From assembly GCA_018818425.1 (NCBI GenBank), contig JAHISB010000026.1:525-64524 (forward strand): a stretch of 64,000 bases of DNA. The letters are read 5' to 3'. Positions 3,656 through 42,083 of this stretch are shown here, piece after piece (position 1 is the stretch's first letter; each line of letters opens with the position of its first letter). Made by a program: the position numbers and the translations under genes. The notes below the pieces were generated by a model, which worked only from the letters and a program-made list of their open reading frames with translations, ran no database searches and was not told the origin of the DNA. Source of the stretch: Patescibacteria group bacterium (GTDB lineage Bacteria > Patescibacteriota > Patescibacteriia > UBA1558 > UBA10009).

Positions 3656-5779
3656 CTACTTCACCAGCATCATTTTTCCGACTTTGGTGAAATCGCCGGA
3701 AGCGAGGTGATAGAAGTAAATTCCTGAAGCCAGATGTGAACCGTCGAAAGTGACTTCGTGAATTCCTGATTCGCGGTATCCGTTGACCAGTTGAGTTACC
3801 TGCCGTCCGTTGATATCGCAGACGGTCAAAGTAACATGGCTGGCTTCGGGCAGGGTGAACGAAAGCGTAGTGGTGGGATTGAAGGGGTTGGGATAACTGC
3901 CGATGGAGTATTCCATTAGAACTTCGGCAATCTGACCCTGTACATCTTTATCCGCGCCTCCGTTCAGCACTCGCAGAACGTCCAGAGTTTTAATTTTATA
4001 CCCGTTGAACCAATCCAAGCTTGATGACCCGCCATAGTACGACGACTGGGCATGATTGTAATTGCCATAAGTTCCAGTGGCATCGGACCACACCATGCTG
4101 GCAACAGACTCCTCGCCCTCTAAGTTGAACGGATCATCATCCAGAATCGCTCCCCAAGCATTTGGAGTTTCTGGGTTGAAATCTGCAGCCAACGGCGGGA
4201 GATAACCAGTATCGCCATCGTACATATAGGTACTGATGGCGTCGTTGCTGCAGGCGCCGGTGTTCACATTAGAGGCAGTAGCTCTAAGGATATAGAACTT
4301 GGAACTTCCCGGCGCAATTTCTCTTTCGTCATAAAACGTCAGAGTTACGGTATAAGTCCAGTCATCAGCATAAAGATGGCCGGTGGGACTGGACAGATTC
4401 TCGCCGTTCTCGCCCCAGACCCGATAAGCGTCGGTGCCGCTTAATCCCGGGGTTAACTCCACAGCAGTCTCATACGAACTACCCTCTAAAACCCTTAGGT
4501 AGGTAAGGTTCAGTATTCCTGCCGTAGGCACACTATCGTACAGATGTATTTTGAACGTCTTCTGCCCAAGAGTTAAAGGCGTACCGCCTTCTTGAGCCGG
4601 AACTTCCCAGCGGTACAACTCCACTGTTCCGTTGGTCAAGATGGTGTTGGTGGTAACATCAGGGATGATTGTTGGAAAGTTGCCATGAACGATCATTTGA
4701 TTTCCGACAATATCCTCTCCGTTGCTGGTTTCGGTAAGCGTTGTGCCGCTCGAGCCGACTGCTTCAAAGTTGCTATCGCAATCAAACCCGGCGCTAATCA
4801 AATCGCCGGTATAAGCTCCATAGGTTTGGTTGATTGGCGCCAGATTGAAGCAAACATCAACTACAACATAAGGCCCCATTGGCGCATAAAGCGGTTCTGC
4901 CGTAATGTTAAAGTCGGCATTGCCGCTGACCATTGTTTGAGTGGCTTCCACCATCTGTCCGGCTTCGTTGGGGTAGCTGATAGTTACGCTCTCAACTGAC
5001 CGATCATAGATCGACAGTTCGGCCTGCTTGATTCTTAGTTTCCAAACGCTGAAGTTCTCGTTCACAGCCAGAAATCTCAACTGCTCCATTTCAACTCCGT
5101 CAGCGCCAGCCACCACATTGGCAGTTTGAGGATTAACGCCGGCGGTTACATACAGCTCGCCGGGTTCAGATTCCACATACACTTGCGAACACCACAGCAC
5201 TGAGTCTTCCGGCCAGACAAACGGAGTTCCCGGACGCATATTAATGTCGTGATGCGCCAAGTAGAACTGCCCTTCGCTGGGTTGCTGGTTCCAATCCGAA
5301 GTAAGCAGAACCTGCAAACGCAATAAGTTAGCGCCTCTATTGAGAATGTAGGCAACATGCCCTTCAAAGAAACTGACTTTTGACAGCTCGGTTCCTAAGG
5401 AATCAAAGTTAACGTAGGGCGTTAACATTTGATAGTTCTCATCACAAAGCGCCGCGGCGCTGACGTGATCGGCCAAGCTGCCGGTTACGTAGAAATCCCA
5501 GCCATGGGTTAACCTACGCCAGTCAGAATAAACAGTGATTGAGTCTGCCGGGTAGATTACGTACGATGTCGCTTCAAACGACCCCGAGCCGTTAAAGTAG
5601 AAACCAACAGCATTGTCGGTTTGTCCTGATTCGGGGGGTTTGATATCTAAGTCGCCCCATTCGCCTTCCGCTAATTTAAGGACTCGGGGGTGGCGAGGGT
5701 ACTCGTTTGCCTCAGAGGCAAACAAAAAAGTGGCCAGCATTAAGCTGATCGCGATTGTCCAGATAATGATTGTCTTCAT
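3656..5779 (-). CDS. secreted protein with N-terminal signal peptide and C-terminal T9SS (Por) sorting domain
   Basis: N-term MKTIIIWTIAISLMLATFLFASEA. C-term SYPNPFNPTTTLSFTLPEASHVTLTVCDINGRQVTQLVNGYRESGIHEVTFDGSHLASGIYFYHLASGDFTKVGKMMLVK closely matches the Por_Secre_tail (T9SS CTD) consensus. The gene is GC-richer than its surroundings. Confidence 0.8.
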   Translation of the reverse strand: MKTIIIWTIAISLMLATFLFASEANEYPRHPRVLKLAEGEWGDLDIKPPESGQTDNAVGFYFNGSGSFEATSYVIYPADSITVYSDWRRLTHGWDFYVTGSLADHVSAAALCDENYQMLTPYVNFDSLGTELSKVSFFEGHVAYILNRGANLLRLQVLLTSDWNQQPSEGQFYLAHHDINMRPGTPFVWPEDSVLWCSQVYVESEPGELYVTAGVNPQTANVVAGADGVEMEQLRFLAVNENFSVWKLRIKQAELSIYDRSVESVTISYPNEAGQMVEATQTMVSGNADFNITAEPLYAPMGPYVVVDVCFNLAPINQTYGAYTGDLISAGFDCDSNFEAVGSSGTTLTETSNGEDIVGNQMIVHGNFPTIIPDVTTNTILTNGTVELYRWEVPAQEGGTPLTLGQKTFKIHLYDSVPTAGILNLTYLRVLEGSSYETAVELTPGLSGTDAYRVWGENGENLSSPTGHLYADDWTYTVTLTFYDEREIAPGSSKFYILRATASNVNTGACSNDAISTYMYDGDTGYLPPLAADFNPETPNAWGAILDDDPFNLEGEESVASMVWSDATGTYGNYNHAQSSYYGGSSSLDWFNGYKIKTLDVLRVLNGGADKDVQGQIAEVLMEYSIGSYPNPFNPTTTLSFTLPEASHVTLTVCDINGRQVTQLVNGYRESGIHEVTFDGSHLASGIYFYHLASGDFTKVGKMMLVK

Positions 5780-24200: not shown

Positions 24201-24344
24201 AGGTCTTACCCTCCTTTGTTATTGTGAGGAGCGGAGCGACGAAGCAATCCCCTTACAAAACGAACGTTCTTGGGCAATGGGATTGCTTCGTCCACTTCGA
24301 CTCGCTATGCTCGCTCAGTGTCCTCGCAATGACAAGTAAGGCCT
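24201..24344. repeat. MITE-like element, family A copy 2
   Basis: AGGTCTTACC..TGTTATTGTGAGG ... CCTCGCAATGACAAGTAAGGCCT. The internal sequence is the reverse complement of the copy at 18815-18960. Confidence 0.7.
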
Positions 24345-24678
24345 ATTCTGAATTATTAAAATACTCCTTCGCTCTTTCCACATCTTCCTGAATTTTTTTC
24401 AACAAATCTTCTTTTTTTTCATACTTAACCAAATCTCTCATTTTATCCAAAACTTCAACTTCCAAGGTTTGGTTATACAAATCTCCGTCAAAGTCTAAAA
24501 GATAAATTTCTATATCTTGGCGAATGCCCATAATTGCCATGGCCGAATATTCTTTATTTTGATAAATAACTTTTGCCAAATAAACGCCGTCTGCTAAATC
24601 AAACCGCTGATCAACTTTCAAATTGGCGGTTTTATAGCCCAGGCCAGCTCCTTTGATGACTTTTCCCCTGATTTTCAT
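24343..24678 (-). CDS. riboflavin kinase (monofunctional RibF C-terminal-domain type)
   Basis: MKIRGKVIKGAGLGYKTANLKV...GVYLAKV...MAIMGIRQDIEIYLLDFDGDLYNQTLEVEVLDKMRD matches the flavokinase domain pattern. Confidence 0.7.
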   Translation of the reverse strand: MKIRGKVIKGAGLGYKTANLKVDQRFDLADGVYLAKVIYQNKEYSAMAIMGIRQDIEIYLLDFDGDLYNQTLEVEVLDKMRDLVKYEKKEDLLKKIQEDVERAKEYFNNSE

Positions 24679-24777
24679 AAAAAAGAAAGTCTAAATTATT
24701 AGACCCAAGATGTTGGTATTGTAACATATTTTGATAAAATAATGAATATTCCTAAAAAATTTTCCACAACCCACCTT

Positions 24778-24806
24778 TTGACAAACTTAAGTTAATTGGT
24801 TAATAT
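24778..24806 (+). promoter_or_regulatory. consensus sigma70 promoter TTGACA-17-TAATAT driving the candidate sRNA
   Basis: TTGACA at 24778-24783, 17-nt spacer, TAATAT at 24801-24806. No plus-strand protein gene lies downstream before the terminator. Confidence 0.55.
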
Positions 24807-24812
24807 AAAATA

Positions 24813-25060
24813 GCATTGCCTCACTATCTCACTGTGAGGGCAACGGCGTTCATCATCTTCAATCATCCAAGGAGGAGGAATGAAGACCATCCCATGTGTT
24901 GTGCACAGCCCTCCGGACACGAGTCCGTTTCCATGGTTGACGTTTGGATCACGACGCGCGGCGCTGCCGCACCCTTCGGACACAGCGCACTGATGTTGCG
25001 CTGATACCCACACACCGCGGATAACGGGGTCGCTAAAGGAGGCGACCCCAATTTTTATTT
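24813..25060 (+). ncRNA. candidate GC-rich small RNA (about 250 nt) with an embedded 37-aa sORF; identity unknown
   Basis: Bounded by a consensus promoter and the intrinsic terminator GGGGTCGCtaaaggagGCGACCCC + T-run (25026-25060). Strongly GC-rich relative to context. Contains a 5' hairpin GCCTCAC..GTGAGGGC, and the sORF 24880-24993 (MKTIPCVVHSPPDTSPFPWLTFGSRRAALPHPSDTAH) is preceded by AAGGAGGAGG. Confidence 0.4.
25026..25060 (+). terminator. Rho-independent terminator
   Basis: GGGGTCGC / GCGACCCC 8-bp stem, loop TAAAGGAG, then AATTTTTATTTT. Confidence 0.7.
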
Positions 25061-25071
25061 TAAAAATCTTA

Positions 25072-27111
25072 TTACACTTCCGGCAGATACTGCACCTCGC
25101 CGTCATTCAAATCTTCCAAATCAGAATCATTATGATTATCAACGAGATTGACTTCTTCCAGCAAGCTCTTTTTTATTTCCCGCAAAAACTGCGAAGGCGT
25201 ATTCAAATACATTGAGGAGTAATCGCTGGTTAGGGGATAAGAAAAAAATAACTGTTTTTGAGCTCTAGTAATAGCCACGTAGAACAGACGGCGTTCCTCT
25301 TCCAGGCCTCCTTCTTCGGCCAAGGCCCGACGGTTCGGGAAAGCTGTATCAATTAAATTGATGACAAAAACCACTTCCCATTCCAAACCCTTGGCTTGAT
25401 GAATGGTGGTAAGTATCAAACGCTCATCTTCCGCTGTATCGGGCTTGGCTCTTTCTACGGCAAACGATTCCTGCAAGGTCACTTCGGCTAAAAAAGAGTT
25501 AAGGTCTTTATAGCTTTCAGCGAACTTGGCCAGTTGTTCAAGATCCTCCAAACGCTCTTTCCAGTTTGGAAACTGTGATTCTAAATAGTTTTGATAATCT
25601 GACTTAGCAATTATTCGGATAAACTCCGACGGACCATTATCCTTAATCCTTAATCCTAAATCCTTAAAGATTCCAACCAACGCCTCCCAGCCAACCTTTG
25701 CCTTAGGAGTTAAAACATCGGAGAGGTCGGCTTCAATACATTTGATGATGCAATCCAGACCTTTGATTCGCTGAAAAATCTTTGAGCCGGTGATATCGCC
25801 AATGCCCACCTGCAAATTCAAAACCCGTAGCCACGAAACTTCTTCTTTGGGGTTGTTGATGATTTTAAGAAAAGCGATGATATCTTTGATGTGCGCCCGT
25901 TCAAAAAACCTGACTCCGCCGCGATAATCGTAAGGAATGTCGCGCTTGGTCAGTTCAAACTCCAATTCCTGCGAATGATGAGCCGCTCTGAACATTACCG
26001 CCATTTTATTCATTGCTATGCCTTCGTCCCTTAATTGCAAAATCATCTGGCTGATGAATTCTGCTTCCTGCCTGGCCGAGGTGGAAGGTACCAAATTCGG
26101 CTTGACGAATTTTTTGAGTTTAGGAATTAAAACTTTGGGATACTGCTGAATATTTTTTTTGATGACCTCGTTGGCCACGTCCAGAATTTCCGGGGTGGAA
26201 CGATAATTGGTCTGCAGTTTAAAAATCGCGGCCTCTTTGAAAATCTTGGGAAAGTTTAAAATGTTGCCGATGTCGGCGGCTCTAAACGAATAAATGCTCT
26301 GCGCATCATCGCCCACCACCAAAACATTATTATGGACCGAAGCCAGCTGATTGATGATTTCGGCCTGAAGGTAATTGGTGTCCTGATACTCATCAACCAG
26401 AATATAATGAAACTGGGCCGCTAGGCGGTCTTTGATGTTTTGATTTTCTCGCAGAAGCTTTAGCCAGTTAATCAGCAAATCATCAAAATCCATGGCATTA
26501 GCCACTTTCTTTTTATGGCGGTATCTTTCGGCGATTAACTTGATCTGCTCTTCTATTTCCAGCCACTTGGGATGTTTAAGCTCAATAACTTCTGTTAAAG
26601 ATGTTTGGGAATTTTTGCTGTAACTTATTAAATCCTTAAGCACCGCCGCCGAGGGAAAACGCCTGGCTTTGGGGTCTATGCCCTCCTCTTTAATACAAAC
26701 CTTGATTAAATCTCTGCTGTCTTCTTCATCAAGAATAGAAAAGTTTGACTGATAGCCGAGTTGCTTGGCGTATTTTCTCAGTATTCGATTACCAATGTGA
26801 TGAAAAGTGCCGCCCCAAAGTTTTTCCGGATATCTGCCTAATAGTGAAGCAACCCGAGTCAGCATTTCTTTAGCCGCCTTGTTGGTAAAGGTGACCAGCA
26901 GAATATTTTCTGGTTTGACTCCCCGTTCGATTAAATAGGCCACGCGATAAACAATGGTCCGGGTTTTGCCGCTGCCTGCTCCGGCCAAGACTAAACAAGG
27001 CCCCTCGGCTTGAGTTACGACCTTGTATTGCTCATCATTTAATTCTGATTGATAGTCTACTTTGAGCTTCTTAATATCTATTGGTTTTTTTAAAACTATG
27101 GTTTTGGTCAT
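25072..27111 (-). CDS. uvrD: ATP-dependent DNA helicase, UvrD/PcrA/Rep (SF1A) family
   Basis: Walker A AGAGSGKTRT, motif Ia FTNKAAKEM, DExx VDEYQDTN, motifs V/VI (TIHQAKGLEW, VAITRAQ). Confidence 0.85.
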   Translation of the reverse strand: MTKTIVLKKPIDIKKLKVDYQSELNDEQYKVVTQAEGPCLVLAGAGSGKTRTIVYRVAYLIERGVKPENILLVTFTNKAAKEMLTRVASLLGRYPEKLWGGTFHHIGNRILRKYAKQLGYQSNFSILDEEDSRDLIKVCIKEEGIDPKARRFPSAAVLKDLISYSKNSQTSLTEVIELKHPKWLEIEEQIKLIAERYRHKKKVANAMDFDDLLINWLKLLRENQNIKDRLAAQFHYILVDEYQDTNYLQAEIINQLASVHNNVLVVGDDAQSIYSFRAADIGNILNFPKIFKEAAIFKLQTNYRSTPEILDVANEVIKKNIQQYPKVLIPKLKKFVKPNLVPSTSARQEAEFISQMILQLRDEGIAMNKMAVMFRAAHHSQELEFELTKRDIPYDYRGGVRFFERAHIKDIIAFLKIINNPKEEVSWLRVLNLQVGIGDITGSKIFQRIKGLDCIIKCIEADLSDVLTPKAKVGWEALVGIFKDLGLRIKDNGPSEFIRIIAKSDYQNYLESQFPNWKERLEDLEQLAKFAESYKDLNSFLAEVTLQESFAVERAKPDTAEDERLILTTIHQAKGLEWEVVFVINLIDTAFPNRRALAEEGGLEEERRLFYVAITRAQKQLFFSYPLTSDYSSMYLNTPSQFLREIKKSLLEEVNLVDNHNDSDLEDLNDGEVQYLPEV

Positions 27112-27353: not shown

Positions 27354-27929
27354 CTACTTGTTTCTCACCTGTACCTCGTAGATAATCTGCTCCAAACGTT
27401 TAAGGTTTCTCTTGGCATCATCAAACTTCTGGCGGCATTGCCCTGATAAATACAAAGTTAAAAGATAACCGACGATTTCTTCGGTAAAAATTTTATACTT
27501 CTTTAAAACCTGGTAGTTGCCCCTGGTGGCCTGCAGAACCGCCTGGCGGACCAGTTCGCCGGTTAAATCGGCCAGACCGTTGATGTATTCTTCCGGCCCG
27601 ATGGTTTCTATCCCCAGCTTGTCCAAAGCTTTGCCCGAAAGAACCTGATGAAACGTTTTGGCTTCTACATATTCTTCCATCGCCGCTTTGTAACTGCCTT
27701 CAAACCTTAAACGATTGTTTTTATTATAGGTTCTGTTTAATTTTTTTAATAAAGATTCTGCCTCTTTGATATTCTCCTTGGCCTGCTTTTCGTCCAGCCG
27801 GTGCAAAGCAAAAATAGCAGTTTTAGATTTTTGAAGAATCCGGCGGGATTCGCCGATAATTTCGTTGCGCTCTTTTTGGTAAAGTTCCAGATCTTTTTTA
27901 ATTTTGGAAAGAAATGATTTTTTAATCAT
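27354..27929 (-). CDS. hypothetical helical protein (possibly DUF47/PhoU-like)
   Basis: 191 aa, predicted all-alpha, charged coiled-coil-like sequence; no diagnostic motif. Confidence 0.4.
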   Translation of the reverse strand: MIKKSFLSKIKKDLELYQKERNEIIGESRRILQKSKTAIFALHRLDEKQAKENIKEAESLLKKLNRTYNKNNRLRFEGSYKAAMEEYVEAKTFHQVLSGKALDKLGIETIGPEEYINGLADLTGELVRQAVLQATRGNYQVLKKYKIFTEEIVGYLLTLYLSGQCRQKFDDAKRNLKRLEQIIYEVQVRNK

Positions 27930-41525: not shown

Positions 41526-42083
41526 AATCCAGCATTTTTATAAAAGATATTAGACCCGGCGCCATAAACTGGCGCTAAATAAAGATGCTATTTTGGTTCT
41601 GCGTCCACGACAAGCATGGGGATTATTACCAGCGCTTTTTATCCGGCTAGACAGCTCGTCTGACTTGCTCGATACGTGCTAGTAATAATTTTCTTGGACG
41701 CAGTACCAGCATAGTGTCTTTTTAAATTTCCAAATGTTTGATATTTGTTTATTTCGCTGATAATCGCCGAGATGCGCTGAGGTACGCGGATATTCGCTCG
41801 CCTCGAGCGAAGTCGAGAGGCGAAGCGGGCTGATAATCGCTGAAAAGTTGAATAATCCATTCATCAGCGTATATCCGCGCGTATCCGCCAATGGTCAGCG
41901 CTTCTCCGCGTCTATCTGCGATTTTTTATTTTGGAATTTGTAATTTATTTGTTATTTGGAATTTGGAATTTGTTTGTAACTTGTGGGTTGCCGTGCCTGC
42001 TCATTCGAGTCTGAACCTGAGGGCTCATCCCTCAGAGTCGAAGACCGGCAGGCAGGTATCTTGTATCTTATTTTATTGATATT

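Follow-up and report, generated by a model that had tools for sequence, protein, structure and literature searches.

A promoter- and terminator-delimited GC-rich unit in a hypervariable spacer of a Patescibacteria genome: a candidate lineage-specific small protein gene

What product, if any, is made from a short GC-rich segment that carries its own transcription signals and holds no annotated gene? The window analysed here, a 64,000-nucleotide stretch of a Patescibacteria group genome, contains one such unit in the gap between a riboflavin kinase gene and a helicase gene. A preliminary description proposed a small RNA (sRNA), a 37-codon small open reading frame (sORF), or both. The adjoining helicase is a 100% match to the NCBI ATP-dependent helicase of 'Patescibacteria group bacterium'. 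By this protein, the nearest named relatives are Candidatus Komeilibacteria and Candidatus Uhrbacteria. The spacer is identical in a second, independent assembly (Logan, SRR6514274; locus L088), and no gene is called there, in agreement with the earlier statement that the gap is free of annotated genes.

Anatomy of the unit

The features of the locus are listed below in order of position.

24343–24678, minus strand: riboflavin kinase (flavokinase) gene, 111 aa (PF01687, E 7e-25).
24679–25071: gap between the flanking genes, 393 nt, holding the unit under study.
24718–24726, minus strand: extended −10 element TGTTACAAT, putatively of the riboflavin kinase gene, back to back with the promoter of the unit.
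24746–25071: lineage-specific insertion, 326 nt, from the riboflavin kinase promoter block to the helicase stop codon.
24778–24806, plus strand: sigma-70-type promoter; TTGACA at 24778–24783, 17-nt spacer, TAATAT at 24801–24806.
24813–24847, plus strand: 5′-terminal hairpin UUGCCUCAC / GUGAGGGCAA with a 9-nt loop; −13.6 kcal/mol, z −3.04.
24856–24886, plus strand: imperfect hairpin (inverted repeat) UCUUCAAUCAUCC / GGAGGAAUGAAGA; −10.8 kcal/mol, z −1.79.
24869–24878, plus strand: Shine–Dalgarno (SD)-like sequence AAGGAGGAGG, first GGAGG 4 nt upstream of ATG.
24880–24993, plus strand: sORF of 37 codons and a stop, ORF translation MKTIPCVVHSPPDTSPFPWLTFGSRRAALPHPSDTAH.
24909–24920 and 24972–24983, plus strand: two copies of CCCTYCGGACAC, 63 nt apart, from an internal repeat search.
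25026–25061, plus strand: intrinsic terminator; stem-loop at 25026–25049 (GGGGTCGC-TAAAGGAG-GCGACCCC), then AATTTTTATTTT.
25072–27111, minus strand: PcrA/UvrD-type helicase gene, 679 aa (PF00580 and PF13361), convergent with the unit.

The promoter had been called perfect. It lies at 24778–24806 as described and its −35 hexamer is perfect; the −10 hexamer matches the consensus at four of six positions. With a score of 10/12 it is the top promoter-like site between 23.5 and 26.5 kb in a consensus scan. Sites scoring at least 10/12 are common, numbering 37 in the window versus 29.7 ± 5.8 in shuffled sequence, and perfect −35 sites are enriched (10 versus 3.8). Transcription would start near position 24813 and yield an RNA of about 250 nt. 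The TGTTACAAT block upstream is presumably the promoter of the riboflavin kinase gene, and a block of the form ATATG(G/T)TAAAAT is conserved at the matching place in three related loci (L081, L083 and L086).

The hairpin at the predicted 5′ end, whose sequence reads GCCTCAC...GTGAGGGC, is likely to stabilize that end of the transcript, judging from general knowledge of 5′-end-dependent RNA decay. Of the hairpins previously described as stable, this one bears out the description (z −3.0), and the imperfect hairpin at 24856–24886 is not significant by itself. The 3′ arm of the latter contains the AUG and part of the SD sequence, so that the ribosome-binding site may be partly hidden.

The strong terminator proposed for 25026–25060 is confirmed: a 9-bp stem with seven G–C pairs has a folding energy of −19.0 kcal/mol (z −4.55). 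A second AAGGAGG (25036) is carried in its 6-nt loop. The minus strand has no U-run, so the terminator is one-directional. It lies 22 nt before the stop codon of the convergent helicase gene. A chance origin of the promoter and terminator in this ordered combination is unlikely.

The contrast in composition that drew attention to the unit is equally clear. GC content is 0.58 over 24812–25049 and averages 0.406 (sd 0.062) in the window, and this is the GC-richest 238-nt segment of the 64 kb. The most likely cause of the high GC is recent acquisition from a GC-richer source, or the composition of the peptide, and not a conserved RNA fold. The paired copies of CCCTYCGGACAC are probably due to chance, which they exceed only marginally; we estimate about 0.1 for such a pair arising in 250 nt. 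A scan of metagenomes for the pair gave 77 matches, all of them unrelated GC-rich tandem repeats. With two copies, a TIGR-array or CRISPR-like reading of this 63-nt-spaced repeat was dropped.

The SD sequence singles out the sORF. Over both strands of the window (128 kb) there are six copies of AAGGAGG. Two lie inside the unit, and only the copy before the sORF has an ATG 3–10 nt downstream. Across 25 intergenic gaps of at least 150 nt, this is the only strong-SD ATG sORF of at least 30 codons that lacks an equal or longer open frame opposite. An SD-like motif (GGAG, GAGG or AGGA) precedes the start of just 9 of the 55 predicted genes in the window, most starts following AT-rich sequence. The host genome appears to start translation largely without SD sequences, and the strong SD of the sORF is atypical for it. 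The near-ideal SD ascribed to the 37-aa ORF is upheld, with 4 nt between the first GGAGG of AAGGAGGAGG and the ATG. All the expression signals of a small gene are there, correctly ordered and spaced, from promoter through AAGGAGG, a 4-nt gap, ATG and 37 codons to the terminator.

Codon statistics are less telling. GC content at the three codon positions of the sORF is 0.57, 0.62 and 0.65, a flat profile with no codon-position periodicity, and its own coding evidence remains the ribosome-binding site. From the base composition of the unit, we estimate a chance of about 0.29 that an ATG in such GC-rich sequence would open a 37-codon frame. The peptide contains seven proline, five serine and four histidine residues and is of low complexity; read from the sequence, it has no hydrophobic run of about 15 residues or more. 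Such a proline/serine-rich peptide would probably be disordered.

On the opposite strand, a 104-codon ORF (24792–25106, minus) spans the whole unit, its codon third positions coinciding with those of the sORF. It was considered as a real gene and judged spurious. It has no SD sequence, family or homologue, is not called by gene finders, overlaps the 3′ end of the helicase gene and crosses the terminator hairpin.

Homologues and the spacer in related genomes

Nucleotide searches returned nothing. No match was found by blastn and nhmmer of the element against 172 fetched loci, by blastn against phage and plasmid collections, by searches of JGI metagenomes and viral contigs with six back-translated 24-nt blocks that together span the element, or by tblastn of its six translated frames against the window and the fetched loci. 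The sORF and the 104-aa antisense ORF have no homologue among 5.8 billion proteins, in databases that under-sample small ORFs. An exhaustive HMMER search of the sORF against 1.84 billion representatives gave four matches, long repetitive proteins matched in 5–12 stretches. Because gene finders seldom call small ORFs, little weight can be placed on the negative protein searches. A pseudogene or a fragment of a known protein was also considered; no Pfam or NCBIfam family matches any of five ORFs taken from four of the six frames, and this candidate was rejected.

The loci of relatives were traced through helicase homologues, at 71–84% identity, to their contigs. The gene order Translin–helicase–flavokinase–RNaseH_2–x–CutA1–SHMT is conserved. 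The spacer between helicase and flavokinase is hypervariable, ranging from 42 to about 1060 nt, with different content in every lineage:

Window: helicase 100%; spacer of 393 nt with the unit under study.
L081: helicase 84%, the closest relative found; spacer of 1059 nt, unrelated sequence.
L089: helicase 81%; contig ends (2297) 24 nt past the helicase stop.
L090: helicase 77%; at least 319 nt of unrelated spacer sequence.
L082: helicase 76%; spacer of 1065 nt with an orphan 224-aa gene.
L092/L093: helicase 76%; spacer with a DUF6922 gene and an AbiEii-type toxin gene.
L091: helicase 76%; contig ends (5084) 32 nt past the helicase stop.
L083–L085: helicase 75%; spacer of 72 nt.
L086/L087: helicase 74%; spacer of 42 nt.
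L171: helicase 74%; spacer of 455 nt.
L172: helicase 71%; 148-aa gene with weak TnsD/HTH similarity; flavokinase gene absent.

Comparison with L081 defines the boundary of the variable part. Just positions 24685–24745, a block that includes the TGTTACAAT element, align (80% over 61 nt) and no match extends into the remaining spacer, which places the unit in a 326-nt lineage-specific insertion within a turnover hotspot. In none of 11 related loci, L081 included, does the syntenic spacer contain the unit. Synteny and peptide conservation had been suggested as checks. Gene order is kept, but the unit has no sequence conservation in L081 and the ten other related loci, and the peptide has no homologue in protein, Pfam or NCBIfam searches. 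At the level of sequence, this is an outcome that the preliminary description had listed as speaking against its proposal.

Several observations concern the surroundings of this spacer. A Translin-family gene (PF01997, E 8e-24; 27354–27929, minus strand) lies immediately upstream of the helicase gene in the window, and the pairing is kept across the clade, in the window and all related loci. Translin is best known from eukaryotes and archaea. The convergent 148-aa gene of L172 (5135–5581, minus strand) occupies the place of the riboflavin kinase gene, and its TnsD and ISL3-type HTH similarities fall below Pfam cut-offs. The ends of the L089 and L091 contigs near the helicase stop may indicate strain-level heterogeneity or repeats that break assemblies there.

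Tandem runs of 5–8 units of about 10–11 bp, of the types CGCGGATAnn, CGCTGATGAcc and CACGGATAA, lie directly after the helicase stop codon in three relatives and in one other spacer of the window. Their positions are 4136–4200 in L081, 2997–3075 in L092 (likewise L093), 3566–3650 in L171 and 41875–41935 (minus strand) in the window. The reverse complement of the units, TTATCCGCG, resembles a DnaA box, TTATCCACA. The unit under study contains a single CCGCGGATAAC at 25015–25025, and CGCGGATW is mildly enriched in the window (8 versus 3.9 expected). A long GC-rich imperfect hairpin, CCTGCCTGCCGG...GAGCAGGCACGG, is found at 41995–42065 (minus strand), where it adjoins CGCGGATA-type repeats; it may be a REP-like intergenic element. 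The string GCAGGCACG also occurs beside the tandem repeats in L081.

Units of matching design at the same slot

Three of the related loci carry units of unrelated sequence and matching design in the same slot and orientation, convergent with the helicase gene. Each consists of a promoter, a 5′ untranslated region (UTR), GGAGG, ATG, an sORF and a terminator:

L081: TTTACA-17-TAAAAT; CCAAGGAGGAATC-ATG; 34 codons; hairpin and U-run.
L171: TTGACC-17-TAAAAT; GGCGGAGGGTTCC-ATG; 37 codons; terminator z −4.55.
L090: TTGCTA-17-TAAAAT with a TG-extended −10; CAGGAGGACTTATC-ATG; 23 codons; terminator z −6.15, with a near-identical second terminator just upstream.

The distance from the −35 element to the ATG is 102, 104, 101 and 85 nt in the window, L081, L171 and L090, respectively. 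All four units are GC-enriched relative to the average of their own locus. The GC content of third codon positions (GC3) is 0.65–0.74 in the four sORFs versus 0.35–0.48 in five host genes; in the L081, L090 and L171 sORFs, this is the highest of the three codon positions (0.65–0.74). MAFFT and local alignment of the window unit with the others were not significant against shuffles (p 0.19–0.83). L081 and L171 align marginally with each other (p 0.047) around GGAGG..ATG.ATCCACGCG, where the peptides read MYPRDGP and MNPRASP. The presence of GGAGG, ATG and an open frame in four of four same-slot units argues for translated small genes.

These slots hold further structures. In L171, an annotated 60-aa gene (3694–3876, plus strand) is antisense to the 37-codon sORF unit and is probably a spurious call on a GC-rich antisense frame. 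In L081, direct repeats of 23–27 nt with the sequence TCATGTATCACATATC(C/A)TGTATC bracket the sORF unit at 4101–4127 and 4554–4576, and a third, inverted copy lies at 4623–4649. They look like recombination sites or cassette boundaries. Read by eye, the two junctions of the window insertion have no counterpart of this repeat. Farther along in L081 (4780–5100, plus strand), two tandem mini-units each combine a flavokinase-type block, ATATG(T/G)TAAAAT, with a terminator that has a 13-bp stem (4893–4924 and 5054–5083). Their ORFs are tiny and rich in lysine (MVKKKGGKK and MGCCGCGSKKKTTKKKKRK).

We give an even chance to the proposal that the unit is a small protein gene with its own transcription, specific to the strain or lineage, and that it forms accessory cargo of a hypervariable slot. 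It was probably acquired recently from a GC-richer source. Its location speaks for accessory cargo and against a housekeeping role. The steps predicted from the signals are as follows. (i) A sigma-70-type promoter would start the RNA of about 250 nt near 24813. (ii) The 5′ hairpin would protect the transcript. (iii) Ribosomes would load at the SD sequence and make the 37-aa peptide. (iv) The hairpin around the SD would moderate translation of the sORF. (v) The one-directional terminator would end the RNA ahead of the convergent helicase stop codon.

The unit could instead be a non-functional remnant, that is, a recent foreign insert or the decayed remains of a cassette, in a spacer prone to recombination, with signals that are leftover or fortuitous. 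We consider this unlikely. The absence of the element from every relative examined, the one with 84% helicase identity included, is what a remnant would lead one to expect, as are the rapid turnover of the spacer, where two related contigs break off 24–32 nt past the helicase stop, and the foreign composition (0.58 versus 0.41). The flat codon profile of the sORF and the abundance by chance of promoter-like sites of at least 10/12 in AT-rich DNA also agree with it. However, a perfect −35 element, a 5′ hairpin, a rare strong SD and a terminator are all intact and in the correct order within 285 nt. Neutral GC-rich DNA would be expected to decay fast under AT-biased mutation, and the design recurs at the slot in three other lineages.

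RNA readings, known systems and meaning

The sRNA reading takes the GC-rich RNA itself to be the product, possibly acting in trans, with the AAGGAGG motifs (in the hairpin near 24869 and the terminator loop at 25036) serving as protein- or ribosome-binding elements rather than marking a translation start. It agrees with the delimited unit in which no gene is called, with its rank as the GC-richest segment of the window and with the place of the motif, two of the six copies in the window lying in the unit, both in or beside hairpin loops. Folding of the whole unit also exceeds that of shuffled sequence (z −2.3). The antisense strand folds equally well (z −2.85), however, and the 5′ hairpin (z −3.0) and the terminator (z −4.55) account for the excess. 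The GC-rich body between them (24890–25025, 136 nt) folds like its dinucleotide shuffles on both strands (plus, z −0.17; minus, z +0.01), and high GC here brings no added structure. This arrangement, with an unremarkable body between a 5′ hairpin and a terminator, is mRNA-like.

Family searches are also unfavourable to an sRNA. At gathering thresholds, Rfam 15 detects in the whole window five tRNAs only, all of them elsewhere. When the cut-off was relaxed to E ≤ 10, the region 24650–25150 gave chance-level snoRNA, RsaB and RUF6 matches only, at 10–19 bits versus gathering thresholds of 40–70. The C/D-box snoRNA matches, on the minus strand, stem from a UGAUGA string (E 1–9) and were rejected as chance. 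There is no homologue on which covariation could rest. A crude duplexfold scan against 58 translation-initiation regions of the 64-kb window did not rise above shuffles, its best value of −50.9 kcal/mol being equal to that of the best shuffled control. The recurrence of GGAGG, ATG and an open frame at the slot also goes against a purely non-coding product, and we judge the sRNA reading unlikely, slightly more so than the remnant. The delimited unit is upheld as far as sequence signals go; of the two products first proposed, a structured sRNA is weakened and the sORF fits the anatomy better.

A divergent housekeeping RNA beyond the reach of Rfam is effectively refuted: size and GC content only speak for it, and housekeeping RNAs of the candidate phyla radiation (CPR) can be divergent, but the models compared (6S RF00013, SRP RF00169/RF01854, RNase P RF00010/11 and tmRNA RF00023) do not match the unit at E ≤ 10, as the preliminary description had anticipated from consensus features, there is no pairing of the 5′ and 3′ ends of the kind that the 6S rod requires, and the element is absent at the locus in close relatives and from the 172 fetched loci, a strain specificity that contradicts such a role.

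Four known classes offer comparisons for the putative small protein gene. The first consists of orphan small protein genes in variable slots or islets. Like the unit, these have their own promoter, SD, short ORF and terminator, are missed by gene callers, are absent from close relatives and have a foreign composition; the slot of the unit holds toxin–antitoxin or transposase-like cargo in relatives. The unit differs in that its peptide has no homologue or codon-position signal and its host is mostly SD-less, and its translation is a prediction. Dual-function sRNAs (SR1/SR1P, SgrS/SgrT, RNAIII/hld) share a length of 200–300 nt, delimitation by promoter and terminator, an SD-led sORF and terminal hairpins. 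They are, however, conserved within clades and have defined pairing regions and targets. For the unit, no conservation was seen in related loci, and the crude scan showed no target complementarity beyond shuffles; it may nevertheless be of this type. Type I toxin mRNAs (hok, tisB, txpA, bsrG) resemble it as short, independently transcribed, strain-variable and intergenic sORF units in which structure in the 5′ UTR keeps part of the SD covered. In contrast, the peptide of the unit is hydrophilic, rich in proline and lacks a transmembrane stretch. A consensus scan of the minus strand over 24400–25870 saw no antisense promoter-like site. Given the hydrophilic peptide and this result, membership of the type I toxins fails. 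Finally, GC-rich islands in AT-rich genomes are a screen for non-coding RNAs such as rRNA, tRNA, RNase P and SRP, and the unit is the GC peak of its window. Unlike those RNAs, it has a body with no excess folding energy and belongs to no Rfam family. The strongest GC peak of this AT-rich genome does not mark a conserved structured RNA, so GC islands by themselves are a misleading guide.

The recurrence of the design invites a broader reading, in which the slot downstream of the pcrA/uvrD-like helicase gene holds a positionally conserved, sequence-hypervariable small gene across the clade, a single fast-evolving sORF/RNA locus. We regard this as distinctly unlikely. The constrained part may then be the design (convergent orientation, about 100 nt from −35 to ATG, 23–37 codons, high GC3, an SD in a mostly SD-less genome), and the sequence itself may vary freely, as a small protein or RNA would under diversifying selection, for instance in conflict with phage or host. 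Alternatively, convergent transcription could itself be the function, insulating the riboflavin kinase gene from helicase read-through.

To our knowledge, the small proteins and RNAs of CPR/Patescibacteria have hardly been explored, and there is no organism for genetic work. If expressed, the candidate small protein gene would add one more unannotated strain-specific small gene to this group, a minor result alone. The wider value lies in the slot. Four lineages carry unrelated units of matching design at one position, and this marks a turnover hotspot for population metagenomics.
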